DNA of 42,326 nucleotides, from NCBI GenBank assembly GCA_031271275.1, contig JAISWA010000066.1, positions 1-42,326 of the forward strand, read 5' to 3'. This document shows positions 1 through 32,867 of the stretch, piece by piece. The stretch is from Clostridiales bacterium. Lineage in GTDB: Bacteria > Bacillota > Clostridia > Lachnospirales > WQUN01. A program made the translations under genes and the position numbers. The notes below the pieces were generated by a model, which worked only from the letters and a program-made list of their open reading frames with translations, had not been told where the DNA came from and searched no databases. The number at the start of each line of letters is the position of its first letter. The first letter of the stretch is position 1.

Positions 1-86
1 GCCCGCGGGTAGCAATAATATCCCCGTTGTTATACAATTGCGTTGTTATTCAGTATTTGAATTTAAATGAGACAGGGGGATCTCAG

Positions 87-1241
87 ATGATTAAAACACA
101 GTCCGCGTGGACTGTCGAAGTGGACGACGGGGAACTTGCCATAAAGGAAATAAAATCCCGGTTGGACCTTAACGGGTTAGGGCGAAACACCATCGGCATT
201 GTGGCGTGTCATTATGAATTTGTGCTGTCTGGGGTTTTAAAGGCGGTATGCGACGCGCTGCCCTTTGAAGTGGCGGGCGTCATATCTTCGTCGCAATCGG
301 TTAACGGGAAAACCGGTTCGCTGCTGCTTACGCTGATGGTGCTGACCGGCGACGGCGTGGAGTTTGTCACGGCGCAGACGCCTTCCCTGCAAACGGAACC
401 GGAGAAGGCGATTACGGAAACTTACGAAAGCGTTCGCCGTAAGGAACGGCCCGCGCTTATATTTACCTTCGCGCCGTTTATGTTACAGAACGCCGGCGAC
501 GATTACGTGAATATACTCACCCGAATATCCGGCGGCGCGCCGTGCTTCGGTTCGTTGGCGGTGGACGACACGGAGGATTACTCCAACTGCTTCATGGTTA
601 ACAGCCGGGGCTATTTCCGCGACGAAATGTCCATGGTTCTCGTCTACGGCGATATCTCGCCGAAATTCTTCATCGCGAATATTTCCGACAATAAAATCCT
701 CGACGCGACCGCGGTCGTGACCAAAAGCGCCGGCCCCCTGATCATGGAAGTCAACGGGCGGCCCATAACGGATTTCTTTGAAAATTACGGGCTGATTAAA
801 GCCGCCGAAACGCAGTACGCCCTGTCTACGCTTCCGTTCCTGCTCGATTATAACGACGGTTCGCCCAAAGTATCCAAGATTTTTGTGGGGCTTACGCCGG
901 AGCGGTACGCCATATGCGCGGGGGCCGTTCCGCAGGGCTGCACGCTTTACGTCACGTCGTCGGACAAAGACGACGTGCTGTTTACCACGGGCGAGGTGAT
1001 GGGGCGCTTGTTGGGCGAAGCCGGAAATATTTCGGGTATGCTCGCCTATTCATGCATCTCGCGGGGCATGGCGCTTGGTGCCGAGCAATTTAGCGAAATG
1101 GATTTGGTGACGGAAAAGATAGGCGGCAGGTTTCCGTTTATGGTTGCGTATTCCGGCGGGGAAATCTGCCCGACCCGGGTGACGGGCAGCGGAGCGGTCA
1201 ACCGTTTCCACAACAACGCGTTCGTCGTGTGCCTGTTCTGA
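87..1241 (+). CDS. FIST-domain (FIST_N/FIST_C-type) sensory protein
   Basis: ORF 27..1241. I prefer the ATG at 87 (MIKTQSAW...), 6 nt after GGGGGA. Size and blocks such as IGIVACHYEF, LAYSCISRG and MVAYSGGEICP fit FIST sensor proteins. The stop overlaps the next gene's start (TGATG). Confidence 0.75.
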   Translation: MIKTQSAWTVEVDDGELAIKEIKSRLDLNGLGRNTIGIVACHYEFVLSGVLKAVCDALPFEVAGVISSSQSVNGKTGSLLLTLMVLTGDGVEFVTAQTPSLQTEPEKAITETYESVRRKERPALIFTFAPFMLQNAGDDYVNILTRISGGAPCFGSLAVDDTEDYSNCFMVNSRGYFRDEMSMVLVYGDISPKFFIANISDNKILDATAVVTKSAGPLIMEVNGRPITDFFENYGLIKAAETQYALSTLPFLLDYNDGSPKVSKIFVGLTPERYAICAGAVPQGCTLYVTSSDKDDVLFTTGEVMGRLLGEAGNISGMLAYSCISRGMALGAEQFSEMDLVTEKIGGRFPFMVAYSGGEICPTRVTGSGAVNRFHNNAFVVCLF

Positions 1242-2947
1242 TGGATACGCCCCGCCCGGAAGATTTACGCGGCGAGAACAGGGAGCTCCGGCTTGAGATA
1301 AAAAAGCTGGAGCGGGAGCTTCGCGTTTCCAAAAGCTACCTGGACAAAGTAATCAAAGCGTCCGAGGGCAAGGATACCCTCGGCAAAGCGCTTATGGAAG
1401 CAAACGCAAAGCAGCGGGCGTATACGGACATGCTGCTTAAAAGCTGCCCCAACATCATTATTTTGCTTGACGCGGACGGCAATTTTGTCATGTGTACCGA
1501 CGCGTTCCTTTCGGAAACCGGCACGCCCAATTTTAATTATATCAAGGACAAAAATTACCTTGAGGTACTGGGGCAATATTTCAGCGCCGATAGCATGGAA
1601 ATATTTCGGGAAACGGTGGACAGGGCGCTTTCTTCAGACGAGACGGCGGGGTTCAACCTGTGGGCTGACTTCGCGCTTAACGGCGAGAGGCGTTTTTATT
1701 CCGTGGAAATGCGCAGAGCCGGCGCCGGTTTAAGCGGAGACGCTGAAATCGTCGCCGGCGTTTTAATTGTCATGGTAGACCTTACCGACGTGATGCGCGA
1801 GAAGCAGCGGGCGGAGTCCGCCAACCGCGCCAAGTCCGATTTCCTCGCTGCCATGAGCCACGAGATACGCACGCCGATGAACGTGATTCTGGGGTTGGGG
1901 GAAATGTTGGAACGCTCCGACGTTACGGGCAGCAACCGCCGGTATGTTTCGGATATCCGGAAATCGGCGAACGCGCTGCTTTCCATCATCAACGACATCC
2001 TTGACTTCTCGAAGATAGAAGCGGGCAGGATGGAACTTTCCGCCGCAAATTACAACCTTCCGCTGCTGCTCGACAGCATTTCGTCCGTGTTCACGCTGCT
2101 TTGCCGGGAAAAGGGGATTGAGATGACCCACCTCTTTGACGCCCGCCTTCCGGAAACCGTATACGGCGACGAAGGGCGGCTGCGGCAGGTGCTGACCAAT
2201 TTGCTTTCCAACGCCGTAAAATATACCAAGCAGGGCGGGGTAACGCTGCGCGCCTGGGCGGAAAACGGCACGCTGCGGTTTGACGTTACCGACACGGGCA
2301 TAGGGATTAAGGACGTGGACACGGAAAAGCTTTTTAAACCTTTCGAGCAGTTGGACGCCATCAAAAATAAAAACGTGGTCGGCACCGGGCTCGGGCTTGC
2401 GATCACGTATAATCTTTGCAAATTAATGGGCGGCTCCGTCTGGCTTGAGAGCGAATACGAGAAGGGCTCGGTATTTTCCGTCCGGCTTCCCTATACCGCG
2501 GCAAAACGGGAAGAAAAAACCGACGAGCCCGCAATCGGGGAATTTTCCGCAAGCGAAGCGCGGGTGCTCGTGGTGGACGATATTGACATCAACCTTTCGG
2601 TTGCGGAGGAATTGCTCAGTATATTTGATATCAAACCCGATTTGGCGCAGAGCGGGGAAGAAGCGCTGCGCAAAGCCCGGGAAAAAGAATACGACATCAT
2701 TTTTATGGACCATATGATGCCGCAAATGGATGGGATGGAAGCGACGCGGTATATCCGCAAAATGGGCGGCTCACGCGCCGCCGTTCCAATCATCGCGCTT
2801 ACCGCGAATATAATCAGCGGAATGGATCAGTTATATTTGGAAAACGGGATGAACGATTTCCTGCCGAAACCTCTTGAGATACCCGCGCTAAGCGCCTGTT
2901 TAAGCAAGTGGCTGCCCGCGCGGGTTATGGCAACCGCTATAACTTAA
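1241..2947 (+). CDS. hybrid sensor histidine kinase (coiled coil/PAS-like, HisKA, HATPase_c, receiver)
   Basis: H-box SHEIRTPMN. N/G boxes LLSNAVKYT, DTGIGI, GTGLGLAI. C-terminal receiver VLVVDDIDIN...IIFMDHMMPQMDG...ALTA...LPKP. ATG at 1241 overlaps the FIST stop; the GTG at 1229 is an alternative start. Confidence 0.9.
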   Translation: MDTPRPEDLRGENRELRLEIKKLERELRVSKSYLDKVIKASEGKDTLGKALMEANAKQRAYTDMLLKSCPNIIILLDADGNFVMCTDAFLSETGTPNFNYIKDKNYLEVLGQYFSADSMEIFRETVDRALSSDETAGFNLWADFALNGERRFYSVEMRRAGAGLSGDAEIVAGVLIVMVDLTDVMREKQRAESANRAKSDFLAAMSHEIRTPMNVILGLGEMLERSDVTGSNRRYVSDIRKSANALLSIINDILDFSKIEAGRMELSAANYNLPLLLDSISSVFTLLCREKGIEMTHLFDARLPETVYGDEGRLRQVLTNLLSNAVKYTKQGGVTLRAWAENGTLRFDVTDTGIGIKDVDTEKLFKPFEQLDAIKNKNVVGTGLGLAITYNLCKLMGGSVWLESEYEKGSVFSVRLPYTAAKREEKTDEPAIGEFSASEARVLVVDDIDINLSVAEELLSIFDIKPDLAQSGEEALRKAREKEYDIIFMDHMMPQMDGMEATRYIRKMGGSRAAVPIIALTANIISGMDQLYLENGMNDFLPKPLEIPALSACLSKWLPARVMATAIT

Positions 2948-4660: not shown

Positions 4661-4750
4661 CCCTGCGGGCGGGAAAGGTGGCAAAAATGTCACCTTTCCC
4701 GCTTTTTGTTGAAACAAAAGCGCCATGTGTAATATAAAAAGCATTAGAGA
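4661..4750 (+). repeat. copy 1 of a duplicated intergenic module: 10-bp-stem palindrome, T-run, then -35/-10
   Basis: The core 4671..4746 aligns by hand with 15749..15823 at 64 of 76 positions. It contains GGGAAAGGTG (4671-4680), a 10-nt spacer, and CACCTTTCCC (4691-4700). Confidence 0.8.
4709..4738 (+). promoter_or_regulatory. sigma-A-type promoter candidate for the 4785.. operon (TTGAAA-N18-TATAAA)
   Basis: TTGAAA at 4709-4714 and TATAAA at 4733-4738 (or ATATAA with a 17-nt spacer), about 47 nt upstream of the ATG at 4785. The same hexamers and spacing recur in copy 2. Confidence 0.45.
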
Positions 4751-4784: not shown

Positions 4785-6605
4785 ATGCAATTTGAATTTT
4801 CCGACTCGATCGGGGGTTACATAAAAACTTTTGACAGGGAGCGGCGCCGCTTTGTCCTCACCACCACCGACGGGCGGGACTTTACCGTTAAGCTGACCCC
4901 CAATATTTACGCGCGTATGGCGCGTAACTTAGGCGAGCCTTATCAGGACGCCAGCGGACAGCTTTACGACCTGCTCGCGCCGGGGCGGTTCCTGTTCGCT
5001 TACGGCACCTATTACCCGGACGCGCCGGAAGTGATGGAAGCGCAGTACATAGACTTCCAGGGCAAGGCGTTGGGTAAGTTCCGCTTTGAGGAACCCGACT
5101 GGTGGGTGAAGCAGGCCAAAAGCATCGCGGAATTTTTTATCGCCGCCCAGTTCGACAAAGACGGGGACGGCTATAAAATCAATTACGACACCTACCGCAC
5201 GGAAGTCAGCGTGACGGGGGAACGCCAAAGCACGTTCCGGCAGGAGACGGACACGATTTCCCGGATGGTTTACGGCCTTGCGAGCACCTACCTGCTGACC
5301 GGGGAGGAAATTTTCCTGGATGCCGCCGAAGCCGGGACCCGGTACCTGCAAAAGCATATGCGCTTTTACGACACCGACGAAAACGTGGTCTACTGGTATC
5401 ACGGCATCGACGTAAAGAACGGGCGCGAGACGAAGGTGTTCGCCTCCGAGTTCGGGGACGATTACGAAGCCGTTCCCATGTACGAGCAAATCTACGCGCT
5501 AGCGGGGCCTACGCAGACTTACCGCGTAAGCGGCGACCCGTCCGTTATGCGGGACATCAACCTGACCATGGATTTGTTCGAGCGATTCTTTAAAGACAAA
5601 GAAAAAGGCGGGTACTATTCCCATATCGACCCCATTACGTTAAGCGCGCATACCCGGTCCCTCGGTAAGAACACCGCCAAAAAGAACTGGAACTCCGTCG
5701 GCGACCACGCCCCCGCTTATTTAATCAACCTGTGGCTTGCCACCGGAAGCGGCGCGCACAAAGATTTTCTGGAATATACCGCCGATTGCATTACCCAACG
5801 CTTCCCCGATTACGAAAGCAGCCCCTTCGTTAACGAGCGTTTCTTTGACGACTGGAGCCGCGACCAGTCATGGGACTGGCAGCAAAACCGCGCCGTTGTG
5901 GGGCATAACTTAAAAATAGCGTGGAACCTCATGCGCATTTACAGCATCGTCCCGAAAAAAGAATACGCGGCGCTTGCCGAAAAAATCGCGGCGTTAATGC
6001 CCCGGTACGGTATGGACGCCCAACGCGGCGGTTGGTACGACGTGGTGGAGCGCGTCATCAGGGAAGGGGAAACCATGCCCCGTTTCGCGTGGCACGACCG
6101 CAAGGCGTGGTGGCAGCAGGAACAGGGCATTCTGGCGTATCAAATCCTGTACGGAATACTTAAAAAAGAAGATTACCTTAAATACGCCCGGGAATCCGCC
6201 GCGTTTTACAATACCTATTTTTTGGACCATAACGACGGCGCGGTGTTCTTTAACGTCCTCGCCAACGGCCTGCCCTACGCGCTTGGGACCGAAAGGCTCA
6301 AGGGCAGCCATTCCATGAGCTGCTATCATTCCATCGAGTTGGCGTACCTTGCGCAGGTATATACCAATCTCTTGTCCGCGGGCAAGCCCCTCGATTTGTA
6401 TTTTAAGCCGGTACCCGGCGGTTTCCCCGACGGAATACTGCGGGTTTCGCCGGATATACTTCCCCCGGGCAGTATTAAAATTGCCGCGGTGACCGTTGAC
6501 GGCGAGCCCTATGACGGTTTCGACGCCCACCACCTGACCGTTAACATCCCCGACGTAAAACACCGCCCGAAAATAAAAGTGACGGTCGAACCGGTACAGG
6601 CGTAA
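4785..6605 (+). CDS. AGE-superfamily (N-acylglucosamine 2-epimerase-like, (alpha/alpha)6) protein with N- and C-terminal extensions
   Basis: 606 aa, with RBS GGGAGGA at 4771-4777. Helical-repeat blocks typical of AGE/YihS-like enzymes: ISRMVYGLASTYLLTG, MYEQIYALAG, GGYYSHIDP, VVGHNLKIAWNLMRIY, GGWYDVVER, KAWWQQEQGILAY. The specific activity cannot be inferred. Confidence 0.6.
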   Translation: MQFEFSDSIGGYIKTFDRERRRFVLTTTDGRDFTVKLTPNIYARMARNLGEPYQDASGQLYDLLAPGRFLFAYGTYYPDAPEVMEAQYIDFQGKALGKFRFEEPDWWVKQAKSIAEFFIAAQFDKDGDGYKINYDTYRTEVSVTGERQSTFRQETDTISRMVYGLASTYLLTGEEIFLDAAEAGTRYLQKHMRFYDTDENVVYWYHGIDVKNGRETKVFASEFGDDYEAVPMYEQIYALAGPTQTYRVSGDPSVMRDINLTMDLFERFFKDKEKGGYYSHIDPITLSAHTRSLGKNTAKKNWNSVGDHAPAYLINLWLATGSGAHKDFLEYTADCITQRFPDYESSPFVNERFFDDWSRDQSWDWQQNRAVVGHNLKIAWNLMRIYSIVPKKEYAALAEKIAALMPRYGMDAQRGGWYDVVERVIREGETMPRFAWHDRKAWWQQEQGILAYQILYGILKKEDYLKYARESAAFYNTYFLDHNDGAVFFNVLANGLPYALGTERLKGSHSMSCYHSIELAYLAQVYTNLLSAGKPLDLYFKPVPGGFPDGILRVSPDILPPGSIKIAAVTVDGEPYDGFDAHHLTVNIPDVKHRPKIKVTVEPVQA

Positions 6606-6615
6606 GGAGGTATTT

Positions 6616-6945
6616 ATGGAAATCATAAAAAAGAAAGACGGCTCCGCGGATATTTTTAAAATAAACGGACGCCTCGACGTGCTCGGCTCCCAAAAAGCGC
6701 AGGACGAAATCATTCCCGCGATACCGAAAGGCGGCAAGCTCATCTTGGACATGACGGACTGTGATTATGTGGCGAGTTCCGGGCTGCGCGTGCTGCTTAT
6801 CGCCGCCAAGCAGTCCGCCGCGGCGGGGTGCAAGACGGTGCTTGCCGGGGTGCAGCCCATGGTATGGGACGTCATACTTATGACGGGCTTTGAGGATGTG
6901 TTAGAGGCTTACCCGACGCAGAAAGATGCGCTAAGCAGCCTCTAA
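6616..6945 (+). CDS. STAS-domain anti-sigma-factor antagonist (SpoIIAA/RsbV-like), copy 1
   Basis: 109 aa. RBS AAGGAGG overlaps the upstream stop. Motif LDMTDCDYVASSGLRVLL carries the conserved phosphorylatable Ser position. Confidence 0.85.
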   Translation: MEIIKKKDGSADIFKINGRLDVLGSQKAQDEIIPAIPKGGKLILDMTDCDYVASSGLRVLLIAAKQSAAAGCKTVLAGVQPMVWDVILMTGFEDVLEAYPTQKDALSSL

Positions 6946-7034
6946 AAACGCAAAATCGCGTTTGACCTGTGGTTACCGCGGCAAAATATGGGGAAAACTT
7001 AACTGTCGCGCAAAAAAATATAGGAGGATTTTTT

Positions 7035-7340
7035 ATGCAGTTTATTCAATCAACCGGCGAAAACACCGTCGTCACCTTAAAAGACCGGCTGGATTATTCC
7101 ACCGCCGCGGCACTGATGGAGGAACTTAAAACCCTTGTGGGGCAGGACATTAAACGTATAGACTTCCACTGCGGGGACTTGGCGTACATATCGAGCACCG
7201 GCATCCGCTGCATGGTGTTCGTTAAACAAAAAATCGACAAGAACGTGGATTTGGATGTGTGCCTGCACCATGTCCGGCAGGAAGTGAAAGATGTTTTTAC
7301 ACTCAGCGGGCTTGAGGATTATTTTGAATTTGTGGATTAG
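7035..7340 (+). CDS. STAS-domain anti-sigma-factor antagonist, copy 2
   Basis: ATG at 7035 follows AGGAGGA (7022-7028); the longer ORF from 6969 lacks an RBS. Motif DFHCGDLAYISSTGIRCMVF retains the Ser. Confidence 0.8.
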   Translation: MQFIQSTGENTVVTLKDRLDYSTAAALMEELKTLVGQDIKRIDFHCGDLAYISSTGIRCMVFVKQKIDKNVDLDVCLHHVRQEVKDVFTLSGLEDYFEFVD

Positions 7341-7352
7341 GGTGGTATTCAT

Positions 7353-7769
7353 TTGAGTACAGCGCGGAACGTATACAGGGCCGACCTTGCCTCCGTACCC
7401 GAAATGATGAGGGCGGTGGAGGATAGTTTAACGGGTAAGCCGGAAAAGTTCGCTTATTCCATGAAGCTTATCTGCGAGGAAATCCTTGTAAATATCGTCA
7501 GCTACGCCTATCCGGAAATGGAAACGGGGGAGCTGACCATAAACTGGTACGACGATACGGAAAATCAAAGGCTGACTATCGTCTTTGAGGATTCCGGCGC
7601 GCCTTTTAACCCGCTGCTGAAGGAATCCCCCGACCTGTCCGTGCCTATGGCGGAGCGCAAAATCGGCGGCCTCGGGATTATGATGGTGCGCGAGTTGTCG
7701 GACGCCGTCCGGTACGCCTATGAAAACGGGAAAAATATCCTTACCGTTGAAAAAAATTATGGGGATTGA
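7353..7769 (+). CDS. RsbW/SpoIIAB-like anti-sigma-factor serine kinase (HATPase_c_2 type)
   Basis: 138 aa with a TTG start at 7353. N-box-like EEILVNIVSYAY, then FEDSGAPFNP, then KIGGLGIMMVRELSD. Confidence 0.8.
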   Translation: MSTARNVYRADLASVPEMMRAVEDSLTGKPEKFAYSMKLICEEILVNIVSYAYPEMETGELTINWYDDTENQRLTIVFEDSGAPFNPLLKESPDLSVPMAERKIGGLGIMMVRELSDAVRYAYENGKNILTVEKNYGD

Positions 7770-8679
7770 TTTTCAGCCGCTCACGCTAAAACATAAAAGC
7801 ACCGTGGAAAAATATATGTTCCCCTTCGGCGAAGGCTCCTGTCAGCACTCGTTTACCGGCATGTTTTACACCAACGACAAATACGCCCACGCCGTGTGCG
7901 AAACGGAAGGCGCTTTGCTTGTGCGCCGGGAAAAACTCGGGGACGAACGCTTCCGCGTTTATCTTATGCCCATGGGGCAGGGGGATATAGCGCCTGCCCT
8001 CAAGAAGCTGCGCGCGGACGCGCGGGCTCATTCCGCGCTAATCAAGTTGGAAACGGTTACGGAAAAAGCGAAGGATATGATGGAGGCTCGCTTTCCCGGT
8101 ATGTTTATTACCGAGGAAGCGCGTGATTACGCGGAGTACCTGTATTTTACGGATAAACTGGCAGAACTGCCCGGCAGTTCCCTGTCGGGCAAGCGGCGGG
8201 ACGTGAACCACTTTTGGCGGCGGTACGAAGGCCGCATACGGATAAAAGACATGGCGGCGGAAGACGCCGGAGAAGTGCGGGCGTTTCAGTCCGCGTGGCT
8301 TAAAGAACGCGAGGGGCGGGAAGATTTTTGCCACCTGCTCCGCGAAGACGCCGCCGTCGCCCGGGGGTTGGAAAATTTCAACGCCTTAGGGCTGCGCGGA
8401 ATACTGCTTTATGTGGACGGCGCGCTCAGGGGGTTCGCCTACGGCGCGCAAATATCAAACGACACTTTCGATATCATGGCGGAAAAAGGCGACACGCGAA
8501 TCAAGGATATTTACAGGGTCTTGAACATGGAAAATGTGCGGCGCTGCTGCGCCGGTCTGCGCTACGTGAATTATGAGGAGGATATCGGTCTGCCGGGGCT
8601 TCGCAAGTTAAAGCTTTCCTATAAACCGGATATCTTAATGAAAAAATACATAATGAAAGAAGCGGCGGGCGTTGAATAA
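7759..8679 (+). CDS. DUF2156 family protein (homologous to the MprF C-terminal aminoacyl-PG synthase domain; GNAT-like)
   Basis: MGIDFQPLTLKHK...SCQHSFTGMF...RDYAEYLY...LSGKRRDVNHF...AEKGDTRIKDIYRVLNME...YVNYEEDIGLPGLRKLKLSYKP follows the DUF2156 pattern. The ATG at 7759 overlaps the kinase gene by 11 nt. Confidence 0.75.
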   Translation: MGIDFQPLTLKHKSTVEKYMFPFGEGSCQHSFTGMFYTNDKYAHAVCETEGALLVRREKLGDERFRVYLMPMGQGDIAPALKKLRADARAHSALIKLETVTEKAKDMMEARFPGMFITEEARDYAEYLYFTDKLAELPGSSLSGKRRDVNHFWRRYEGRIRIKDMAAEDAGEVRAFQSAWLKEREGREDFCHLLREDAAVARGLENFNALGLRGILLYVDGALRGFAYGAQISNDTFDIMAEKGDTRIKDIYRVLNMENVRRCCAGLRYVNYEEDIGLPGLRKLKLSYKPDILMKKYIMKEAAGVE

Positions 8680-9568
8680 ACTGGAAGCCGGGGTTTCACT
8701 GGTTATCATCACTTTTTTCGCGGGCGTGCAATATCCGTTTTTATCCGGCGTCGTTGCTTCCGTATCGGTTTTCGCGTTCCTGACCGTCACCAACTTCATC
8801 GGTTTCCTGATTATCCTTGCCGCTTTTTGGGGCGAGCTGTTCCGCCTTACCAAAAAGCAGGCGCTTCAAAGCGGTTTGCTCGCGGCGGAGATGCTGATGT
8901 TCAACATATTTTCCCTGCTCGGTTCTTCCGGGATGGACCCGTCGGTCACTTCTTTCGCGCTGACGGGTTATTTGCTTTTTATCCCGCTTCTTTATTTTTT
9001 GCTGCGGAAAAAAGTACATAGGCGCGCCTTGATTGGAACGGGGGCCGTACTCGCGGGGCTGCTGCTTGCGTTGGAAGCCGACCCCGCGCGACTGTGGGAC
9101 GCCCGTATTTTACTGTTGCTGATTGCGGGCTTTTTTTTCGCCCTGTATATGGTGACGGTAGAGAAGCTTTGCGTAAACGCCAACCCGTCCATCCTGTCCA
9201 TGGGGCGTATGTTTTTCGGTTTCGTCTCGGCGCTTGCCTGTTGGACGGCGGAAATACTGATTACCGGCGGCGGGTTCACCGTTCCCGACGCGCCGGGCTT
9301 CTGGAACAGCGTGATTTTTATCAGCGTTTTTATCTGCGGCTTTTACTGCGTGGTGCAGATTTACGCCCAACGCTACTTAAGCGCCATGGATGCAGGGTTG
9401 ATTTTTTCCACCGAAGTTATTTTTACCTTATTGGCGTCGCCGCTGTTGGTCAGGGTCACCGGAGGGACGGCGGAGCCGATCACCGGTTTTAAGCTTGCGG
9501 GCTGCGCCATCATTGTCGCCGGGGTATTAATCGCCGGGGGCGTAAAGAGGGGCGCTCATGAAAAATAA
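8672..9568 (+). CDS. DMT-superfamily (EamA-like) membrane transporter
   Basis: 298 aa with about 10 hydrophobic helices and two half-repeats. The TTG start at 8672 overlaps the upstream stop; the exact start is uncertain. Confidence 0.65.
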   Translation: MNKLEAGVSLVIITFFAGVQYPFLSGVVASVSVFAFLTVTNFIGFLIILAAFWGELFRLTKKQALQSGLLAAEMLMFNIFSLLGSSGMDPSVTSFALTGYLLFIPLLYFLLRKKVHRRALIGTGAVLAGLLLALEADPARLWDARILLLLIAGFFFALYMVTVEKLCVNANPSILSMGRMFFGFVSALACWTAEILITGGGFTVPDAPGFWNSVIFISVFICGFYCVVQIYAQRYLSAMDAGLIFSTEVIFTLLASPLLVRVTGGTAEPITGFKLAGCAIIVAGVLIAGGVKRGAHEK

Positions 9569-10457
9569 GAATACCCGCCTCAAAAACAGGGGGCTTGCGG
9601 CGCTGACCGCCCTCATTTATATCCTTGTTCACTTTGTTTTCGGTTTGGGGGACTTCCCCCTGTTTAAAAGCGATGTGGGCCCGAAGAATTTTTTGCCCCT
9701 CGCGACGGGGTTGCTTCTCGGGGTCTACGGTTCGGCGGGTACGTTCCTCGGGGCTTTGGCTACGGGGATATTTTCCGGCGAAAGCGCGGTCGCGGTATCG
9801 GCTGAAATTATCTTCGCGCTGATCATGTCGGAAGGGGGGCGGCTGCTTTGGTATTCCGGCAAGAAGGCGCGGATAGTCGCGTTAAAGAAAGCCGCCGATT
9901 TCGGGCGGTTTATGGGCCTGTCCTTCCTGCTTTCGGCGGTTTGCGCCGGGTTGGGGCTGCTGTCCGGCGGGGCGGTTGAACCCGCTCGGGTGTTTTTTTC
10001 TTTTGCGGTATGGAACACGCTGCTTGGTATACCCGTCCTGATACTCACGACTTCTATTTTCTGCGTAACCCCGGACTGCCCGAAGCGGCTTCAAATCAAG
10101 CCGGACATAGACGAGCGCCTTCCGCTTACGGTGGAAAGCATCGGTATTTTACACGAAAAAATAGACGGGCTCTGCGCCGAAAAAAAGCTTGACCGCAAGC
10201 GGGCGTTCGGGATGCAGAACTGTATCGAGGAATGTGTTTTGCTCATACTGGGCCAACCCTCCTGTAAAAATTTATGGCTGACAGCCCGCGTAAGCGACAG
10301 CATTTCCATTGTCATGAAGTACGACGGGGAACGCTGCAACCCGTTGGCGCGGCGCAAAATAGGTGACCAACTGGGCCTGATTATTATCAAGAACCGTGCC
10401 CTGCGCGCGTCGCACGGCTATTTCGGCGGCGTAAACAGTTTGCATATTGTGCAATGA
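9558..10457 (+). CDS. membrane protein: N-terminal ~5-TM domain fused to a degenerate RsbW-like (HATPase_c_2-like) domain
   Basis: The N-terminal ~175 aa are hydrophobic (FLPLATGLLLGVYGSAGTFLGALATGIF). The C-terminal ~120 aa align block by block with the 7353 kinase: CIEECVLLIL vs ICEEILVNIV, IVMKYDGERCNPL vs IVFEDSGAPFNPL, RKIGDQLGLIIIKN vs RKIGGLGIMMVRE. Confidence 0.6.
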   Translation: MKNKNTRLKNRGLAALTALIYILVHFVFGLGDFPLFKSDVGPKNFLPLATGLLLGVYGSAGTFLGALATGIFSGESAVAVSAEIIFALIMSEGGRLLWYSGKKARIVALKKAADFGRFMGLSFLLSAVCAGLGLLSGGAVEPARVFFSFAVWNTLLGIPVLILTTSIFCVTPDCPKRLQIKPDIDERLPLTVESIGILHEKIDGLCAEKKLDRKRAFGMQNCIEECVLLILGQPSCKNLWLTARVSDSISIVMKYDGERCNPLARRKIGDQLGLIIIKNRALRASHGYFGGVNSLHIVQ

Positions 10458-10470
10458 AAGGCGTGAAGAT

Positions 10471-13400
10471 ATGAAACCGCATACCCGTCACAGGATAAAA
10501 ATTATAATCCCGCTGATACTGGTAACCGCGCTGCTCGCTGCGGCGGTTGTCAGTATTGCCGGTATGCTCCGTATCGGGAACACGGCGCTGAAGGGAAACG
10601 AAAGCCTCGGGGAAAGTATCGGGAACGATATGGCAAGCGTTTTGACATGGGAAGAAGAAACCAGACAATCGGCGCTGCTCGGCGGAAACGCGGCGGTACT
10701 TGGCGCAAAGCTTGAAAGCGGTACGCCCCTGAGCGACGCTGCCAACGATATTCTTGACCTTACCTACTGGGGCGAGAAAGCCTATGCCTTCGTGGTAGAC
10801 GCCCAAGGCGGCATTGTGGCAGCCCCCGGTCAAGCGCCGGGCGGTTATCAAAATATTTTCAACGACGGCTCCGTTTCTTCCCGCAGCGCGGCGGAATACA
10901 TCCTAAACGCCGAATACGAAGGTTTTATTGTTAAAAGCGGGGACATTTATTATGAGTTCAAGGATTATAATTACATACCGGGGGACGGGGACATTTATTA
11001 TTTCTATTCCCCCGTTCCCGCCACAAGCTTTAAGCTTGTATCCTATGTTCCCGCCGCGCAAATTACTTCCTATGCCGGTTATGCGCGGGAAGCCATCGCC
11101 GCTCAGACGGAAGAAGCGTCAAAACCCGTGGATTCCGTTATGAAAAATTCCGTTATCTTTCTTATCGTGATGTTCGCGGTATTTTTGCTTATCGCGGTCA
11201 TTTTGGCAAACAGCGTCACACACAGGGCGGTTGGCGCGTTTTCCGCCATAAACCGGGACGCGGGAACCCTTAACGGGGAGGCGGACGCAACCGCGGACCA
11301 TAAGCGCAAGCGGTTCTCCATTCAAAAGAAGATACAAATGGTTATCCTCGTCATTTCCATCATAGCCCTGCTGTTGGCAACCGCCGTGGGTATTTCCAGT
11401 ATGCTTAACATACGGCGGGAGGTGCTCGCCGGGAACGAAAGCCTCGGGGAAAAATTCGGAAACGATACGGAAGACCGGTCGATCATAGAGGAAGAAAGCG
11501 CTTACATCAACGAGGTTTATGACAACGCGCTGCTTGCCGACGCGAGTTTTAACAAATTTGTCGATTATGTTTCCATGTTTGCAAAATACGCGGAATCCCT
11601 GTACGCCGCCCCCGGGGATTTTGTCCCGGTGGATGTGCCGCCTCCGGATAAGGCAAATGAAAACATCCTGTCGCTTCAGCGCGTGCTGTTGGATGAAAGT
11701 ATCGCGGCCGGGGACGTAATGGACGAACTGGGGCTGCTCGGTAATTTGCGGTACGTATTCGACCCGTTCATTAGGGAAAACAAGCAGTTAATCGCGACCC
11801 TGTACGCCGGGACGGAAAGCGGCGTGCTTGTGAGTTACGACGACACCGCGCACCTTGCCGACTCGCCGGGTTCCTATGAGGAATACTACGACTTCAAAAC
11901 GGCGGAGTGGTACACGTTGGCGAAAGAATCCGGCGCGCCGGTCTTTACCGACGTATATACGGATGTGTACGGGCGGGGGCTGACCGTAAGCTGCGCGGCT
12001 CCGTTTTACAACAGCGGCGCTTTTGCGGGCGTAGTGTGTATGGACATTTTAATTAAAGACTTGAACAGCAATATTATCGATAATTTTTATTTGGCGGACA
12101 ATTCCCGCGTGTTTTTAGTCAATACCCGGGGCGGAATCATCACTTCGTCCCATACGGACGCAAGCGGTTCCCTCCATGTTTTCAACGACGGGACGGAATC
12201 GGCCAAGACGGCGGTTGAAACTATTTTGAGCAGCGAATACGCCAACTACATATTCAAAAACGGGTACCTTTATCAGGAATATCGGGACTATGACTACAAG
12301 CCGTCCGAAGGGGACATGTATTATTTCTATTCGCCCATGCGCTCTACTTCATGGCGGTTGGTGTATCAGGTCCCCGCGGAGGAAATCACCTCTTACGCCG
12401 CTTATATGCGGGAGGAAATCGCCGCCGAGGCGGAGGAAACCGCCCGGGCGATGAATTCGACGATTTTGTTTTCCATTTTATTTTTCTTTGTCGTGTTCAC
12501 GCTGCTGATTCTTTTTGTCATTCTTTTCGCCAACAGCTTCGCGCGGCGGCTGACCCACCCCCTCATCACCCTGCGCAGGGACGTGGAAGTCATCAGCGGG
12601 GGCAACCTTGACCACCGGGCAAGCGTCGCCGCCAACGACGAAACCGGCGACCTTGCGGCGGCGTTTAACCGCATGGCGGCTTCGCTTAAAACCTACATCG
12701 CCAACTTGACGGAAGTCACTGCGGAGAAGGAGCGCATCGGCGCGGAGCTTAACGTGGCGACGCGGATACAGGCAGGTATGCTGCCCTGCATATTCCCGCC
12801 GTTCCCGGACCGGGGCGAGTTCGATATATTCGCAACCATGCGCCCGGCGAAAGAAGTGGGCGGGGATTTTTACGATTTCTTCCTTGTGGACGACAATACC
12901 CTCGCGGTGGTCATGGCGGACGTATCCGGCAAGGGCGTCCCCGCGGCGCTGTTTATGGTCATCGCCAAAACGCTGATCAAAAATAACGCCCAGTACGGCA
13001 AGCGGCCCGCCGAAGTTTTTACGGCGGTCAACAACATGCTGTGCGAAAATAACGACGAGGGTATGTTTGTTACGGCGTTTATGGGATACTTGGATATCAG
13101 GAGCGGCTTGCTGACCTATGTGAACGCCGGGCATAACCCGCCGCTTGTGAGGAGCGCGGGGGGGTCGTTTGAGTATTTGAGAAGCAAGCCGTCGTTTTTC
13201 CTTGCCGGCATGGAAAACTCCAAGTACCGGGAATACGAGATTACGTTGGCGCGGGGCGACGAAATCTTCCTTTACACCGACGGGGTGACCGAGGCGATGG
13301 ACAAAGATTTCCAACAATTCACCGAGCAGCGCCTTTACGACGCGCTTAACGGGCACGGCGCGGGTCAAATCAGGGAAATGCTGGCGGGGGTGCAGGGGGA

Positions 13401-13473
13401 AATCGACGCTTTCGCGGGTACCGCCGAGCAATCCGACGATATTACCATGTTGGCGCTGTGCAAAAAAATATAG
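10471..13473 (+). CDS. membrane sensor PP2C phosphatase (RsbU/SpoIIE family): two extracytoplasmic Cache-like modules, HAMP, PP2C
   Basis: Four TM segments. HAMP region (RRLTHPLITLRRDVEVISGGNLDHR...DLAAAFNRMA). PP2C motifs EVGGDFYDFF, ADVSGKGVPAALFM, NAGHNPP, LYTDGVTEA, QSDDITML. I prefer the ATG at 10471 over the TTG at 10447. Confidence 0.9.
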   Translation: MKPHTRHRIKIIIPLILVTALLAAAVVSIAGMLRIGNTALKGNESLGESIGNDMASVLTWEEETRQSALLGGNAAVLGAKLESGTPLSDAANDILDLTYWGEKAYAFVVDAQGGIVAAPGQAPGGYQNIFNDGSVSSRSAAEYILNAEYEGFIVKSGDIYYEFKDYNYIPGDGDIYYFYSPVPATSFKLVSYVPAAQITSYAGYAREAIAAQTEEASKPVDSVMKNSVIFLIVMFAVFLLIAVILANSVTHRAVGAFSAINRDAGTLNGEADATADHKRKRFSIQKKIQMVILVISIIALLLATAVGISSMLNIRREVLAGNESLGEKFGNDTEDRSIIEEESAYINEVYDNALLADASFNKFVDYVSMFAKYAESLYAAPGDFVPVDVPPPDKANENILSLQRVLLDESIAAGDVMDELGLLGNLRYVFDPFIRENKQLIATLYAGTESGVLVSYDDTAHLADSPGSYEEYYDFKTAEWYTLAKESGAPVFTDVYTDVYGRGLTVSCAAPFYNSGAFAGVVCMDILIKDLNSNIIDNFYLADNSRVFLVNTRGGIITSSHTDASGSLHVFNDGTESAKTAVETILSSEYANYIFKNGYLYQEYRDYDYKPSEGDMYYFYSPMRSTSWRLVYQVPAEEITSYAAYMREEIAAEAEETARAMNSTILFSILFFFVVFTLLILFVILFANSFARRLTHPLITLRRDVEVISGGNLDHRASVAANDETGDLAAAFNRMAASLKTYIANLTEVTAEKERIGAELNVATRIQAGMLPCIFPPFPDRGEFDIFATMRPAKEVGGDFYDFFLVDDNTLAVVMADVSGKGVPAALFMVIAKTLIKNNAQYGKRPAEVFTAVNNMLCENNDEGMFVTAFMGYLDIRSGLLTYVNAGHNPPLVRSAGGSFEYLRSKPSFFLAGMENSKYREYEITLARGDEIFLYTDGVTEAMDKDFQQFTEQRLYDALNGHGAGQIREMLAGVQGEIDAFAGTAEQSDDITMLALCKKI

Positions 13474-13493
13474 CGGGGCAGGGGGCGGCGCGG

Positions 13494-14192
13494 ATGCCGG
13501 ATAAAAAGACCATCTTACTGGTGGAAGACAACGAGCAGCTTAACCTGATTAACAAGCGCGCCTTTATCCGCGCCGGTTACCGCACGGTTATCGCGACCAA
13601 TATCGTTCAGGCAAAGGCGTATTTGGAAGCGGAGATACCGGACGTTATTATTCTGGACATTATGCTTCCGGACGGAAGCGGCGTGGAATTTTGCCGCGAG
13701 ATACGCAAAAGTATTGCCGCGCCCATTTTATTTCTGACAGCCGTAAGCGGGTACGAGCAGACTTTGGACGGCTTGGAGGCGGGGGGCGACGACTACCTTA
13801 ACAAGCCCTTCGACATGAAGCTGCTGTTGGCGAAAGTGGCGGCGTTCCTGCGCAGGGACAAAATCGCGGACGGAATAAGGCTTCAGGATAATTTAATCAA
13901 GGCGGGACCGATTACCCTCGACGCGGTGGCAATGCGGGCTTCCATTGACGGACGGGGCGTTTCCTTATCGCAGAAAGAATTTTCCCTGCTGCTGCTGCTG
14001 ACCCGAAACGCCGGGACGGTTTTGGCGGACACCTACCTGTACGAAAGCGTATGGAAGCAGCCGATGATCGCCAACGATTTGGCGCTCAGGAGCATGATTT
14101 CCCGCCTGCGGCGAAAGTTGGAGGGCAGCGGGTATGAGATACTTTCCGTAAGGGATAAGGGCTACCGGTTTGACGAGATTCCGCCGGCATAA
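13494..14192 (+). CDS. OmpR/PhoB-family response regulator (receiver plus winged-helix)
   Basis: ILLVEDNE...VIILDIMLPDGSG...LTA...NKPF receiver. C-terminal LSQKEFSLLLLL...LRSMISRLRRKL...GYRF winged helix. ATG at 13494 follows a GGGGG run. Confidence 0.9.
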   Translation: MPDKKTILLVEDNEQLNLINKRAFIRAGYRTVIATNIVQAKAYLEAEIPDVIILDIMLPDGSGVEFCREIRKSIAAPILFLTAVSGYEQTLDGLEAGGDDYLNKPFDMKLLLAKVAAFLRRDKIADGIRLQDNLIKAGPITLDAVAMRASIDGRGVSLSQKEFSLLLLLTRNAGTVLADTYLYESVWKQPMIANDLALRSMISRLRRKLEGSGYEILSVRDKGYRFDEIPPA

Positions 14193-14322: not shown

Positions 14323-14727
14323 TTACAGCGCAATAAACTCAGCCGCCGTCATGATTTGGGGGGTGGTTATGGTGCTTTCAATAAAATCCTTGTCGCCCGT
14401 AAGCAAAATGTCCGCATTCGCGTTTATAGCCGCTCGGAGAATCGGACGGTCTTTTAAATCGCGGATTTCTTTTTCGTCTGGGTAAATACCGGTGGGTACT
14501 GGAACTATCTCCATCAATAATAACGCCTGAGCCATAAACCTTTCAAAATCGCTGATGTGTTCAGGAAATTTTCTATTAGCAATCCGCCAAAATTCTTCAA
14601 TGGTCTGCTCACAAATAATGCATTCATATACAGAATTGGACACGGCTTTGTTGAAAGCCTGTCCAACCGGACTTTTTCTTGAATACGCCGCTGATATGAG
14701 GATGTTGGTGTCGATTAGTATTTTCAT
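14323..14727 (-). CDS. PIN-domain toxin (VapC-like ribonuclease)
   Basis: MKILIDTNILISAA... with acidic residues spaced as in PIN domains (D6, E40s, GDKD near the C-terminus). It overlaps the upstream antitoxin gene by 4 nt. Confidence 0.8.
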   Translation of the reverse strand: MKILIDTNILISAAYSRKSPVGQAFNKAVSNSVYECIICEQTIEEFWRIANRKFPEHISDFERFMAQALLLMEIVPVPTGIYPDEKEIRDLKDRPILRAAINANADILLTGDKDFIESTITTPQIMTAAEFIAL

Positions 14728-14987
14728 CGGCCTTCGACTTCTTCGCGGATTTCACGACACATATTGAGAATGTCATCTTCGCTTTTTATATCTGCTTTTT
14801 CCCATTCTCCTTCCATTGTCTTTGCAAAAGTATCCATTGCATAAATAGCAGGGTTTATTAAAAAGACCCTGCCATTTTCATAAACAAGAGCGATTTTGTC
14901 ACCTGTTTGAATTTTTAGCTTCTGACGGATATCGACAGGTAGGGATATCTGACCTTTGGGCATTACTGTCGTAGTATTGAATGACAT
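14724..14987 (-). CDS. AbrB/MazE/SpoVT-family antitoxin
   Basis: VMPKGQISLPVDIRQKLKIQTGDKIALVYENGRVFL is a typical swapped-hairpin (looped-hinge) DNA-binding motif. RBS AAGGAGGA lies upstream. The gene pairs with the PIN gene. Confidence 0.8.
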   Translation of the reverse strand: MSFNTTTVMPKGQISLPVDIRQKLKIQTGDKIALVYENGRVFLINPAIYAMDTFAKTMEGEWEKADIKSEDDILNMCREIREEVEGR

Positions 14988-21417: not shown

Positions 21418-21426
21418 CGGTTTCAT

Positions 21427-21448
21427 CCGCCGCCGGAACCGGCGGCGG
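21427..21448 (+). terminator. GC-rich perfect palindrome CCGCCGCCGG-AA-CCGGCGGCGG, candidate terminator
   Basis: Starts 10 nt after the stop at 21417 and is followed by AT-rich sequence (CAATATAAATTATATTT), but not by a clean T-tract. Confidence 0.45.
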
Positions 21449-21480
21449 CAATATAAATTATATTTGAGAGGAGATTCATC

Positions 21481-22248: not shown

Positions 22249-22286
22249 TTGGCATTATGCGCAAGCTGCCACTCCGGGCAGCCGTC

Positions 22287-22361
22287 GTCATTCTGAGCGA
22301 AGCGAAGAATCCTTCAATGCTTACCCCTTTGAAAGATTCTTCGCCCGCGGCTCGGAATGAC
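22287..22361. repeat. REP-like palindromic element, second copy (GTCATTCTGAGCGAAGCGAAGAATC ... GATTCTTCGCCCGCGGCTCGGAATGAC)
   Basis: Arms at 22287-22311 and 22335-22361 are imperfectly complementary. The element is intergenic, between the DJ-1-like gene and the tautomerase gene. Confidence 0.7.
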
Positions 22362-22404
22362 CGGTTTGACCGTGAGGCAGCCCTGTCTCTTTGGGAGGTT
22401 TCCT

Positions 22405-22620: not shown

Positions 22621-22638
22621 CCGTAAGGAGGTCGCTCT

Positions 22639-24267: not shown

Positions 24268-24270
24268 CGG

Positions 24271-32848: not shown

Positions 32849-32867
32849 AGAAAAGCCCCCGAAGAAT

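Follow-up and report, generated by a model that had tools for sequence, protein, structure and literature searches.

Several partner switches act on outputs other than sigma factors, among them SiaABCD and HsbR/HsbA of Pseudomonas, SypE/SypA of Vibrio and BtrU/V/W of Bordetella, whose outputs are diguanylate cyclases, FlgM, type III secretion and polysaccharide. The icfG cluster of Synechocystis sp. PCC 6803 (slr1855-slr1861) encodes the AGE-like protein Slr1855, the STAS protein Slr1856, the GlgX isoamylase Slr1857, the STAS protein Slr1859, the PP2C phosphatase IcfG (Slr1860) and the kinase Slr1861 (PMC8670252; PMC12329169). Slr1861 is an anti-SigC factor; sigC lies outside the cluster, as does the gene of the antagonist, ssr1600 (PMC12329169).

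The locus studied here occupies positions 4785 to 14192 of the window, by which we mean the whole 42,326-nt stretch that was analysed. A sequence-only reading had proposed it as a single undescribed nine-gene system. Our analysis points instead, with a probability of about 0.55, to one operon that joins two homologous, separately conserved partner-switching cassettes, and that would work through the switch mechanism described below.

Organisation of the cluster

The ORF check of the window found nine intact ORFs on the + strand (Table 1), and the coordinates, the three overlaps (7759/7769, 8672/8679 and 9558/9568) and the limit of 89 nt on the gaps are all as the sequence-only reading had given them. 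The widest gap (6946-7034) presumes that STAS2 starts at ATG 7035, a start that was adopted because the orthologues begin there. Pfam annotation bore out the domain calls for the nine proteins, with TMX falling in no Pfam family, and recovered the full antagonist, kinase and phosphatase set (STAS, HATPase_c_2 and SpoIIE). No sigma factor is present among the annotated ORFs of the whole window, as had been noted, and no strong internal terminator was found within the cluster. The OmpR-family regulator runs in the same direction and is probably co-transcribed, but it is kept in neither conserved cassette in the related loci compared, and we do not retain it as a member of the system.

Table 1. 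Features of the cluster and its upstream region, in positions of the window.
Feature	Position	Strand	Assignment and remarks
Hairpin, 17-bp stem, then T-run	4667..4704	+	directly 5' of the likely operon promoter/RBS
Likely operon promoter and RBS	TTGAAA at 4708; AAGGGAGGA at ~4770	+	
AGE-superfamily protein, 606 aa	4785..6605	+	Pfam GlcNAc_2-epim, E 1.4e-11; opens the icfG-type half
STAS1, anti-sigma-antagonist type	6616..6945	+	Pfam STAS; acceptor Ser present
STAS2	7035..7340	+	Pfam STAS; ORF open from GTG 6969; acceptor Ser present
RsbW/SpoIIAB-type Ser kinase, 138 aa	7353..7769	+	HATPase_c_2, E 6e-21
DUF2156 protein, soluble double-GNAT, 306 aa	7759..8679	+	LPG_synthase_C (DUF2156), E 3.6e-38; opens the second cassette
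EamA/DMT-family membrane transporter, 298 aa	8672..9568	+	Pfam EamA
TMX, 299 aa, six TM helices and RsbW-like pseudokinase domain	9558..10457	+	no Pfam family
Membrane PP2C phosphatase, 1008 aa	10447..13473	+	dCache_1, HAMP, SpoIIE; ATG 10471 a possible true start
OmpR-family response regulator	13458..14192	+	Response_reg and Trans_reg_C; ATG 13494 the likely start

Two conserved cassettes and their junction

The first half (4785-7769) is orthologous to a cassette found across phyla in the order AGE-like, STAS, isoamylase, STAS, kinase and Cache-HAMP-PP2C. This order, annotated as AGE-STAS-CBM48/alpha-amylase-STAS-HATPase_c_2-dCache/HAMP/SpoIIE, appears in all six Pfam-annotated places of AGE homologues, which represent five distinct loci. 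In a set of 32 metagenome loci whose sequence extends 6 kb or more beyond AGE on its 3' side, STAS was found in 29 (two STAS in 26), GH13 in 31, RsbW in 25 and PP2C in 27, while DUF2156, EamA and TMX occur in none. STAS1 and STAS2 are orthologues of the STAS genes that lie 3' of AGE and 3' of the isoamylase gene, respectively, and both keep the phospho-acceptor Ser; they are 66% and 65% identical to STASa and STASb of the icfG-type locus L085, and the 138-aa kinase is 53% identical to its RsbW. Counterparts in DUF2156-type loci, by comparison, share 30-50% identity with these three proteins (35-50% for the kinase). In alignments the kinase shows an intact N box, G1 box and G2 box, and its identities place it in the icfG-type lineage; AGE-STAS-STAS-RsbW is an icfG-type cassette reduced to its 5' portion. 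The AGE-like protein consists of an N-terminal beta domain, an (alpha/alpha)6 barrel and a C-terminal beta sandwich, and its AlphaFold2 model (pLDDT 83) has glucose 2-epimerase 8h1l as top Foldseek match (E 1e-15). It has more than 4600 homologues across phyla, the best 120 at 64-84% identity, and natural AGE::STAS fusions were found in other genomes.

The second half (7759-13473) corresponds to a cassette of DUF2156, EamA, TMX and PP2C that occurs in gut and rumen Clostridia, Synergistota and Spirochaetota. It is formed by the 23 closest DUF2156 loci, with a Cache-HAMP-PP2C adjoining DUF2156 in 21 of them; in the other two (L009 and L021) the available sequence ends just after TMX. The partner genes are absent from more distant DUF2156 loci (L024-L026, L028-L084). 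RsbW is found within 10 kb in 12 of the 23 loci and STAS in only 9, so that the invariant core is DUF2156, EamA and PP2C, and the phosphatase of these loci may have a target other than STAS. Natural fusions link the components: EamA::PP2C (10 loci), EamA::TMX (3 loci) and PP2C::RsbW (4 loci). TMX is absent where EamA::PP2C occurs and thus is not a universal output. The window PP2C shares 68% identity in its catalytic part and 42% in its sensor with that of L004, against 47% and 25% with that of L085, which identifies it as the orthologue of the PP2C in DUF2156-type loci. No description of this cassette was found in the literature, and it is apparently undescribed, whereas the cassette to which the first half belongs matches the icfG cluster in gene content.

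The cassette arrangement thus recurs in 23 DUF2156-type loci (21 with PP2C in the available sequence) and in most of the 32 AGE-type loci, and it exceeds chance. Conservation in related genomes holds for each half separately and not for the nine-gene joint; among about 55 informative loci no second hybrid was found, and the two cassettes occur together only in this window. Half 1 lacks the isoamylase gene and the Cache-HAMP-PP2C of its cassette, which it would have lost, and half 2 would have lost its own STAS and kinase. It is very improbable, in our view, that a rearrangement or an assembly error merely placed cassette remnants side by side, one or both of them decaying and with no cross-talk, even though the hybrid was seen once and, compared with the two parent cassettes, lacks an isoamylase, a PP2C, a kinase and a STAS gene. 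Against such a junction without function, none of the nine ORFs is disrupted, and their starts and stops overlap or lie close together, with 11 nt of overlap at the joint itself (7759/7769); the combined halves retain each switch component in exactly one copy, namely one kinase and one phosphatase, with two STAS proteins; and a GH13-less AGE-type locus is known elsewhere (L130). In tetranucleotide composition both halves also agree with the remainder of the window (r 0.87-0.95), so the hybrid is not an artefact of assembly between organisms. The hybrid comes from one contig, and a chimera assembled from within one population could still account for it.

Proposed switch and its partners

The double sensor that had been read on the phosphatase was confirmed and reflects a partial duplication within the protein (41% identity across 155 aa): a truncated duplicated sensor (aa 1-290) precedes the dCache sensor (aa ~291-690), the HAMP domain (698-748) and the SpoIIE/PP2C domain (815-1005). 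TMX combines a part of six helices (~aa 1-170) that resembles an ECF S component with a cytoplasmic part (~aa 185-298) in which we recover the membrane-anchored, degenerate RsbW paralogue claimed earlier. Its C-terminus aligns with the co-encoded RsbW kinases (hhalign probability 96.5%, E 7.5e-10), an RsbW HMM matches TMX directly, and in a Foldseek comparison with its AlphaFold2 model UsfX, RsbW and SpoIIAB ranked first. TMX has lost the Asn of the N box, the Asp of G1 and the GGLG motif of G2, and the domain is predicted to be a catalytically dead pseudokinase. Pseudo-RsbW domains are also fused to SDF and MATE transporters, and other genomes encode EamA joined to PP2C or TMX.

The DUF2156 protein had been likened to the C-terminal fold of MprF. 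Its subfamily profile matches BT_3689 (PDB 2HQY) over the full length with E 5e-83 and MprF (4v36) with only E 0.29, so the protein is BT_3689-like and the MprF analogy is weak. In MprF and the fungal protein ErdS, DUF2156 domains act as aminoacyl-tRNA transferases (PMC7334510), PF09924 is the family of the MprF synthase domain, and nearly all the loci show translational coupling of the DUF2156 gene to one for a membrane transporter. These observations would suit a split, MprF-like lipid remodelling system, in which DUF2156 would move the amino acid of an aminoacyl-tRNA onto a membrane lipid and EamA (with TMX) would flip the resulting lipid, the phosphatase, kinase and STAS proteins activating the process on an envelope signal. 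We regard this as unlikely, given that the profile matches only BT_3689, that 2HQY is reported to hold acetyl-CoA and a Helicobacter pylori homologue functions in protein lysine acetylation (PMC10700544), that the LPG_synthase_TM domain is absent, and that the flanks of the loci favour amino-acid transport and peptidases over lipid genes.

For the two-cassette operon we infer the ligand, the binding partners and the reactions catalysed by the AGE-like and DUF2156 proteins as follows. The extracytoplasmic Cache module would sense a small ligand, which may be an amino acid or a metabolite related to one, and through HAMP would set the activity of the PP2C, which would dephosphorylate STAS~P, while the 138-aa kinase would re-phosphorylate STAS. 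Unphosphorylated STAS would alternate between the kinase and two non-sigma partners, proposed to be the AGE-like enzyme and the dead RsbW-like domain of TMX, the latter in the membrane with EamA. The switch would in this way gate, post-translationally, both an enzyme of the sugar epimerase/isomerase type and a module for transport and acyl transfer (DUF2156 and EamA); EamA itself has a weak match to the carboxylate/amino acid/amine transporter model TIGR00950.

The suggestion that the kinase has a non-sigma partner is plausible, but the term "sigma-less" is true of the locus only: since Slr1861 controls SigC, which is encoded elsewhere (PMC12329169), the absence of a sigma factor from a locus does not show that the switch lacks one. 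A conventional anti-sigma switch, with the 138-aa kinase sequestering a sigma factor encoded elsewhere, STAS freeing it, and AGE-like, DUF2156, EamA and TMX as co-expressed cargo or regulon, would agree with this precedent, with the position of sigC and ssr1600, and with a kinase that is catalytically intact and closest to icfG-type kinases. We nevertheless consider it a rather unlikely account, as it leaves unexplained the fusions AGE::STAS, EamA::pseudo-RsbW, SDF::pseudo-RsbW, MATE::pseudo-RsbW and EamA::PP2C, in which switch domains are physically tied to cargo proteins. Nor is a sigma factor regularly adjacent in related loci: the five Pfam-annotated AGE-type loci have none in their flanks, and none recurs around the 23 DUF2156-type loci. 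The two modes are not mutually exclusive, and the kinase may also hold a sigma factor encoded elsewhere.

Comparison with known systems

Judged by the gene content given in the literature, the icfG cluster is made up of the same families, in nearly the same order, as the AGE-type loci and the four genes that open the cluster of the window. Both have a pair of STAS proteins, which are phosphoproteins in Synechocystis, with a single RsbW-like kinase and a single PP2C, in a cluster without a sigma factor. The window differs in lacking the isoamylase, in taking its PP2C from another cassette and in the insertion of DUF2156, EamA and TMX. The sequence-only reading had invoked icfG only as a precedent; the carbohydrate-type enzyme is a standard member of icfG-type cassettes.

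BT_3689 and Helicobacter pylori HPB8_1270 are soluble DUF2156 double-GNAT proteins like that of the window, but the homologues of Bacteroidales lack any signalling or transporter neighbours. With MprF the window shares the Pfam family PF09924 and the pairing of a synthase-type domain with a membrane translocator; the membrane partner here is a DMT transporter, LPG_synthase_TM is lacking and the similarity is marginal.

Like the RsbU-RsbV-RsbW and SpoIIE-SpoIIAA-SpoIIAB switches of Bacillus, the cluster combines a PP2C phosphatase and a GHKL Ser kinase with a STAS antagonist that carries an acceptor Ser, and the C-terminus of TMX is modelled with the SpoIIAB/RsbW/UsfX fold. The window operon differs in having no sigma factor, in its extra dead RsbW paralogue, membrane-anchored or transporter-fused, and in a phosphatase with an extracytoplasmic Cache sensor. 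It would share with SiaABCD, HsbR/HsbA, SypE/SypA and BtrU/V/W a STAS-type protein whose phosphorylation state picks the partner, and SiaA is the top NCBIfam match of the window HAMP-PP2C, far under the model cut-off. To our knowledge, none of those switches has a transporter-tethered pseudo-RsbW, a DUF2156 enzyme or an AGE-like enzyme. In the DUF2156-type cassette a switch of phosphatase, kinase and STAS is linked to membrane transporters and to an enzyme that resembles acyltransferases.

Components of the operon and its surroundings

The nine plus-strand ORFs proposed by the sequence-only reading were recovered at exactly the same coordinates, with three overlaps (7759/7769, 8672/8679 and 9558/9568) and a widest gap of 89 nt, from the end of STAS1 at 6945 to the ATG of STAS2 at 7035. 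Eight of that reading's nine domain assignments were upheld by Pfam and NCBIfam, and the membrane protein that we call TMX, composed of six helices and a degenerate RsbW-like domain, had no Pfam match. The first gene is preceded by a good RBS; within the operon, no convincing terminators were found, and promoter and terminator scans stayed at chance level. The features discussed here are compiled in the table.

Features of the window and of the related loci considered in this analysis
Feature	Source	Position	Description
AGE-family protein, first ORF of operon	window		606 aa; Pfam match weak but over threshold
STAS1, STAS2	window		STAS (Pfam/NCBIfam)
Kinase	window		138 aa; HATPase_c_2
DUF2156/LPG_synthase_C protein	window		Pfam/NCBIfam
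EamA transporter	window		Pfam/NCBIfam
TMX	window	9558-10457	
Phosphatase (PP2C)	window		1008 aa; dCache-HAMP-SpoIIE
OmpR-type regulator	window	13458-14192	Pfam/NCBIfam
FIST-domain protein, then hybrid histidine kinase	window	27-2947	kinase PAS-HisKA-HATPase-REC
Hybrid or orphan kinases	window	1229-2947; 28469-29929	
Hairpin, then T-run	window	4667-4704	perfect 17-bp stem
PIN-domain toxin and MazE/AbrB-type antitoxin	window	14323-14987	minus strand
Run of large repeat proteins	window	17632-27916	
SLH and three FGE-sulfatase domains	window	within 17632-27916	1261 aa
Four Lcl_C domains	window	within 17632-27916	525 aa
RCC1-repeat protein	window	within 17632-27916	692 aa
Two DJ-1/PfpI genes	window	21481-22248; 27913-28464	
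Two Gly-rich membrane ORFs	window	32468-33236	minus strand; ~125 aa each; four predicted helices
AGE::STAS fusion	L165	8995-11109	
AGE::STAS fusion	L168	78-2222	
AGE::STAS fusion	L167	3278-5575	
Two added small ORFs	L012	9029-9676; 12806-13297	~210 and ~165 aa
Two added small ORFs	L013	9112-9738; 12809-13306	~210 and ~165 aa
SDF transporter with pseudo-RsbW domain	L006	8341-9963	

The components of an RsbV/RsbW/RsbU-type switch are in place by sequence. The kinase matches HATPase_c_2 (E 6e-21) and has all of its N, G1 and G2 boxes, with N47, D80/G82 and GGLG invariant in the alignment, and its catalytic motifs are intact. Both STAS proteins carry a phosphorylatable Ser in a DS(S/T)G-like loop, where 'VASSG' of STAS1 and 'ISSTG' of STAS2 line up with the Ser that accepts phosphate in TM1442 and SpoIIAA. 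The phosphatase covers the whole SpoIIE profile (E 4e-47) and resembles the PP2C domains of RssB, SiaA and Rv1364c, whose structures are solved. We considered its first sensor module as a possible remnant of a lost icfG-type PP2C and rejected this in favor of an internal partial duplication.

The OmpR-type regulator has both its receiver and its winged-helix domain; no histidine kinase is encoded within the operon, and no conserved counterpart of the regulator was found in related loci. Hybrid or orphan kinases lie elsewhere in the window, and the hybrid kinase that follows the FIST-domain gene might be the partner of this orphan regulator. A similar hybrid kinase is found upstream of the AGE-type cassette in L085, the AGE-type locus closest to the window, and in L086.

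Several features flank the operon. The hairpin precedes its likely promoter, in the region that separates it from a divergent tRNA/rRNA methyltransferase gene (minus strand, start 4614), and the toxin-antitoxin pair is directly 3' of it in a low-GC stretch (0.44). The DJ-1/PfpI genes stand at the edges of the repeat-protein run; DJ-1 is a frequent neighbor of AGE-type cassettes, and the window's copy is only 38% identical to that of L085. The two neighboring Gly-rich membrane ORFs look like a putative split TauE/SafE-type permease.

Two halves with different relatives

The first half of the operon, from the AGE-like gene to the kinase, belongs to a widespread family of loci. The AGE-like protein has more than 4600 homologues. 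Identity to it is 64-84% across the best 120, whose sources include Actinomycetota, Bacteroidota, Spirochaetota, Omnitrophota, Elusimicrobiota and Latescibacterota. Modeled with AlphaFold2 (pLDDT 83, pTM 0.88), the AGE-like protein is an AGE-superfamily barrel with added N- and C-terminal beta domains, and Foldseek finds the (alpha/alpha)6 barrel with E 1e-15 and a TM-score of about 0.71 by PDB chain length. The fold matches comprise glucose and cellobiose 2-epimerases, which are closest, mannose isomerase and YihS, and the sequence likeness to any solved AGE enzyme is marginal. Invariant R152/R160, H374 and H509/H515 lie in the alignment at the spacing expected of a catalytic His pair and a substrate-binding Arg, and are candidates for these residues.

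The order AGE, STAS, CBM48/alpha-amylase, STAS, HATPase_c_2 and dCache/HAMP/SpoIIE occurs at each of the six places annotated with Pfam, which represent five distinct loci, and a DJ-1/PfpI gene often accompanies it. Our census took 32 metagenome loci whose sequence runs 6 kb or more past AGE, and we found STAS in 29, two STAS genes in 26, the GH13 isoamylase in 31, RsbW in 25, PP2C in 27 and DJ-1 in 26; DUF2156, EamA and TMX occurred in none of the 32. The window has the same order of AGE-like, STAS, second STAS and RsbW-like kinase genes, orthologous to those of AGE-type loci. The GH13/CBM48 isoamylase gene is absent from between its STAS genes, and tblastn of the window with the GH13 protein found nothing; L130 is an AGE-type locus likewise without GH13. 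The input to the AGE-type PP2C varies among loci, which include RsbW::PP2C fusions of about 525 aa without Cache and others that are REC::PP2C (L109, L113, L114, L120; L117, L143, L148).

In some loci ordered DJ-1, GH13 and AGE, the AGE-like protein ends in a fused STAS domain, which scores over the Pfam threshold in L165 and L168 and weakly in L167. No separate STAS, kinase or PP2C gene was found in these loci in the sequence at hand (about 9 kb downstream in L141 and L165). L141 has the same order and an AGE ORF of like size (711 aa), in which no STAS domain was detected. These fusions argue that the STAS gene after AGE would encode a direct partner of the AGE-like enzyme.

The second half, from the DUF2156 gene to the phosphatase, has relatives in Lachnospiraceae and other Clostridia, Synergistota, and Spirochaetota of the gut and rumen. 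The likeness to MprF proposed for the DUF2156 protein was not supported: despite the Pfam family match, MprF (4v36) scores only E 0.29 against the subfamily profile, while the one convincing solved structure, BT_3689 (2HQY), reaches E 5e-83 and matches over its full length (profile positions 2-299 against residues 1-293). The protein is soluble, with a single domain of 306 aa in which no LPG_synthase_TM flippase domain was found. BT_3689 holds acetyl-CoA, and a Helicobacter pylori homologue has a part in protein lysine acetylation (PMC10700544), while MprF and the fungal ErdS use aminoacyl-tRNA (PMC7334510). For the window's enzyme, the profile scores make the MprF analogy the weaker of the two.

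We define the cassette from the 23 closest distinct DUF2156 loci. A Cache-HAMP-PP2C gene adjoins DUF2156 in 21 of them, and in the remaining two, L009 and L021, the sequence stops shortly past TMX; the remoter DUF2156 genes (L024-L026 and L028-L084, mainly from Bacteroidales and Butyricicoccus) have no cassette neighbors. The cassette takes two forms: DUF2156-EamA-TMX-PP2C, often with RsbW next and STAS upstream, and DUF2156 followed by an EamA::Cache-HAMP-PP2C fusion of about 1025 aa, in loci without TMX. EamA::TMX fusions occur in Treponema sp. C6A8 and two Synergistota, and PP2C::RsbW fusions in four loci. Within 10 kb, RsbW is present in 12/23 loci and STAS in 9/23, and the invariant core therefore consists of DUF2156, EamA and PP2C.

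The flanking genes are heterogeneous, with no Pfam family in more than five of 135 flanking ORFs and a mild enrichment in polar amino-acid ABC transporters, peptidases and an SDF transporter. An all-against-all BLAST for extra conserved partners around the cassette gave only small clusters, mostly of transporter or two-component genes. Two added small ORFs, one of them between TMX and PP2C, are common to two copies of the cassette, one from Synergistaceae and one from Lachnospiraceae (L012 and L013); the 163-aa ORF of L012 has no Pfam match. Agr-like LytTR/HATPase_c_5 two-component pairs lie beside the cassette in L001 and L004, and L001 also has C39-peptidase ABC exporters of the bacteriocin type.

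By sequence identity, the window is a hybrid. Identity to the L085 counterparts is 66% for STAS1, 65% for STAS2 and 53% for the kinase, compared with 30-50% for DUF2156-type loci, whereas the phosphatase is closer to that of the DUF2156-type locus L004 (68% in the catalytic and 42% in the sensor part) than to that of L085 (47% and 25%). No second PP2C or kinase, no further STAS and no GH13 gene is encoded in the window. In tetranucleotide signature, both halves resemble the remainder of the window and not their relatives, which makes an inter-organism assembly chimera unlikely, and we rejected it; the shared signature also indicates that the two halves were not joined very recently. The DUF2156-type and AGE-type loci examined contained no further hybrid. 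Contigs of 5659 and 4032 nt common to the AGE, DUF2156 and TMX matches had raised the suspicion of more hybrids, and proved coincidental, as those bearing DUF2156 lack AGE.

The view of the nine genes as one undescribed system thus stands in part. Judged by gene order and homology, the icfG-type half adds a member, short of one lost gene, to a known kind, and the nine-gene combination is a lineage-specific splice and not one system. The undescribed part is the other cassette: we found nothing in the literature on DUF2156 with partner switching, SpoIIE with EamA, or HATPase_c_2 with a transporter, and, as far as the searchable literature shows, DUF2156-EamA-TMX-PP2C with its transporter-tethered pseudo-RsbW is an undescribed partner-switching variant.

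Transporter-borne pseudo-RsbW domains and a proposed switch

In an alignment of 14 homologues, conservation extends over both parts of TMX: the membrane part with its six helices and, C-terminal to it, a domain of roughly 115 aa. This domain is homologous to the RsbW-like kinases encoded alongside it (hhalign probability 96.5%, E 7.5e-10) and is found directly by an RsbW HMM built from those kinases; the best PDB matches of the AlphaFold2 model (pLDDT 83) are UsfX, RsbW and SpoIIAB. A sequence search against the PDB gave nothing, the kinship surfacing through profile-profile and fold comparison only. Substitutions have removed the Asn of the N box, the Asp of G1 and the GGLG of G2, and the lid region is shorter; the domain should therefore neither bind ATP nor phosphorylate. 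The modeled membrane part matches RibU (5kbw) with a Foldseek probability of 0.99 and a TM-score of 0.64 by PDB chain length, but at rank 50, and its possible likeness to an ECF-type S component is a lead only; EcfT and EcfA are absent from the operon and not recurrent in related loci.

The TMX family is rare, with 55 clusters at E <= 1e-30 when its profile was searched against 1.84 billion representative proteins. The profile matches include MATE and SDF transporters that bear the pseudo-RsbW domain found at the C-terminus of TMX. Degenerate RsbW-like domains are fused N-terminally to SDF and C-terminally to MATE transporters, and in the DUF2156-type locus L006 such an SDF fusion, with the domain at its N-terminus, is placed between STAS and DUF2156. 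The pseudokinase-on-transporter theme therefore reaches past EamA and TMX. Proteins P0320, P0332, P0339, P0343 and P0367 are, like the L006 protein, examples of these SDF and MATE fusions. In three other proteins (P0311, P0314 and P0328; 700-790 aa), a TMX-type membrane domain forms the N-terminus of SpoIIE-HATPase_c_2 fusions, so that a single membrane protein unites phosphatase with kinase.

In most teaching, partner switching serves to control sigma factors; if confirmed, the transporter-tied cassette and the spread of icfG-type loci over many phyla would broaden this picture. STAS domains have two classical roles, on SulP/SLC26 transporters and as anti-sigma antagonists. In the mechanism that we propose, the Cache-PP2C and the kinase would fix the phosphorylation state of STAS, and unphosphorylated STAS would dock on two partners, the AGE-like enzyme and, beside EamA, the pseudo-RsbW domain of TMX, so that a sugar-converting enzyme and a transport/acyl-transfer module would be controlled after translation. 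The natural fusions physically join switch domains to these cargo proteins. The basic N-terminus and six helices of TMX predict a cytoplasmic pseudokinase, which fits the model, and the ten-helix EamA protein would also end in the cytoplasm, as known for the DMT family and as the EamA::TMX and EamA::PP2C fusions demand. The weakest point is that many DUF2156-type loci have no nearby STAS and RsbW, and that the EamA::PP2C loci lack TMX.

The main rival explanation places a sigma factor at another site in the genome. Synechocystis is an example: there the kinase Slr1861 was identified in 2025 as an anti-SigC factor, with SigC and its antagonist Ssr1600 encoded outside the cluster (PMC12329169). 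The window bears out the earlier observation that no sigma factor is encoded anywhere in it, and no sigma-factor family recurs in the flanks of related loci; a sigma factor elsewhere and STAS docking can, however, coexist.

A more novel joint reading, to which we give a probability of 0.35, is that pseudo-RsbW domains on EamA/DMT, MATE and SDF transporters would be STAS docking sites, that DUF2156-EamA-TMX-Cache/PP2C would be the founding example of partner switches in which an extracellular ligand governs the post-translational gating of transport and acyl transfer, and that, in parallel, STAS would bind directly to the highly conserved AGE-like enzyme of the cross-phylum icfG-type cassette and so control it; in the window, one kinase/phosphatase pair could drive both outputs. 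If confirmed, a conserved cassette would tie switch domains to transporters beside a DUF2156 enzyme, a tie that the natural fusions support, linking the two classical roles of STAS and adding a post-translational layer of transport control in gut anaerobes. Genetics would be possible in cultured carriers of this cassette, namely Oscillibacter sp. GMB15532, Butyrivibrio sp. WCD3002 and Treponema sp. C6A8.

Comparison with the Synechocystis icfG cluster

The slr1852-1862 (icfG) cluster encodes the AGE-like Slr1855, the STAS proteins Slr1856 and Slr1859, GlgX (Slr1857), the PP2C IcfG (Slr1860) and the kinase Slr1861, which phosphorylates both STAS proteins, Slr1856 being dephosphorylated by IcfG (PMC8670252, PMC12329169). 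In our literature search, an anti-sigma factor antagonist, glgX and a 2-epimerase came up together only in a Synechocystis salt-stress paper. If confirmed, the icfG cluster would be one instance of a cassette found in many phyla and no cyanobacterial curiosity, and the conservation of the AGE-like protein (64-84% among the best 120 homologues) would allow the long-standing question of the IcfG target to be addressed in heterotrophs that grow fast, for example Xylanimonas ulmi. Compared by published gene content and not by cyanobacterial sequences, the AGE-type loci and the Synechocystis cluster are equal, whereas the window differs from the icfG type in that the isoamylase is gone and the PP2C is of another lineage than the kinase and the STAS proteins.
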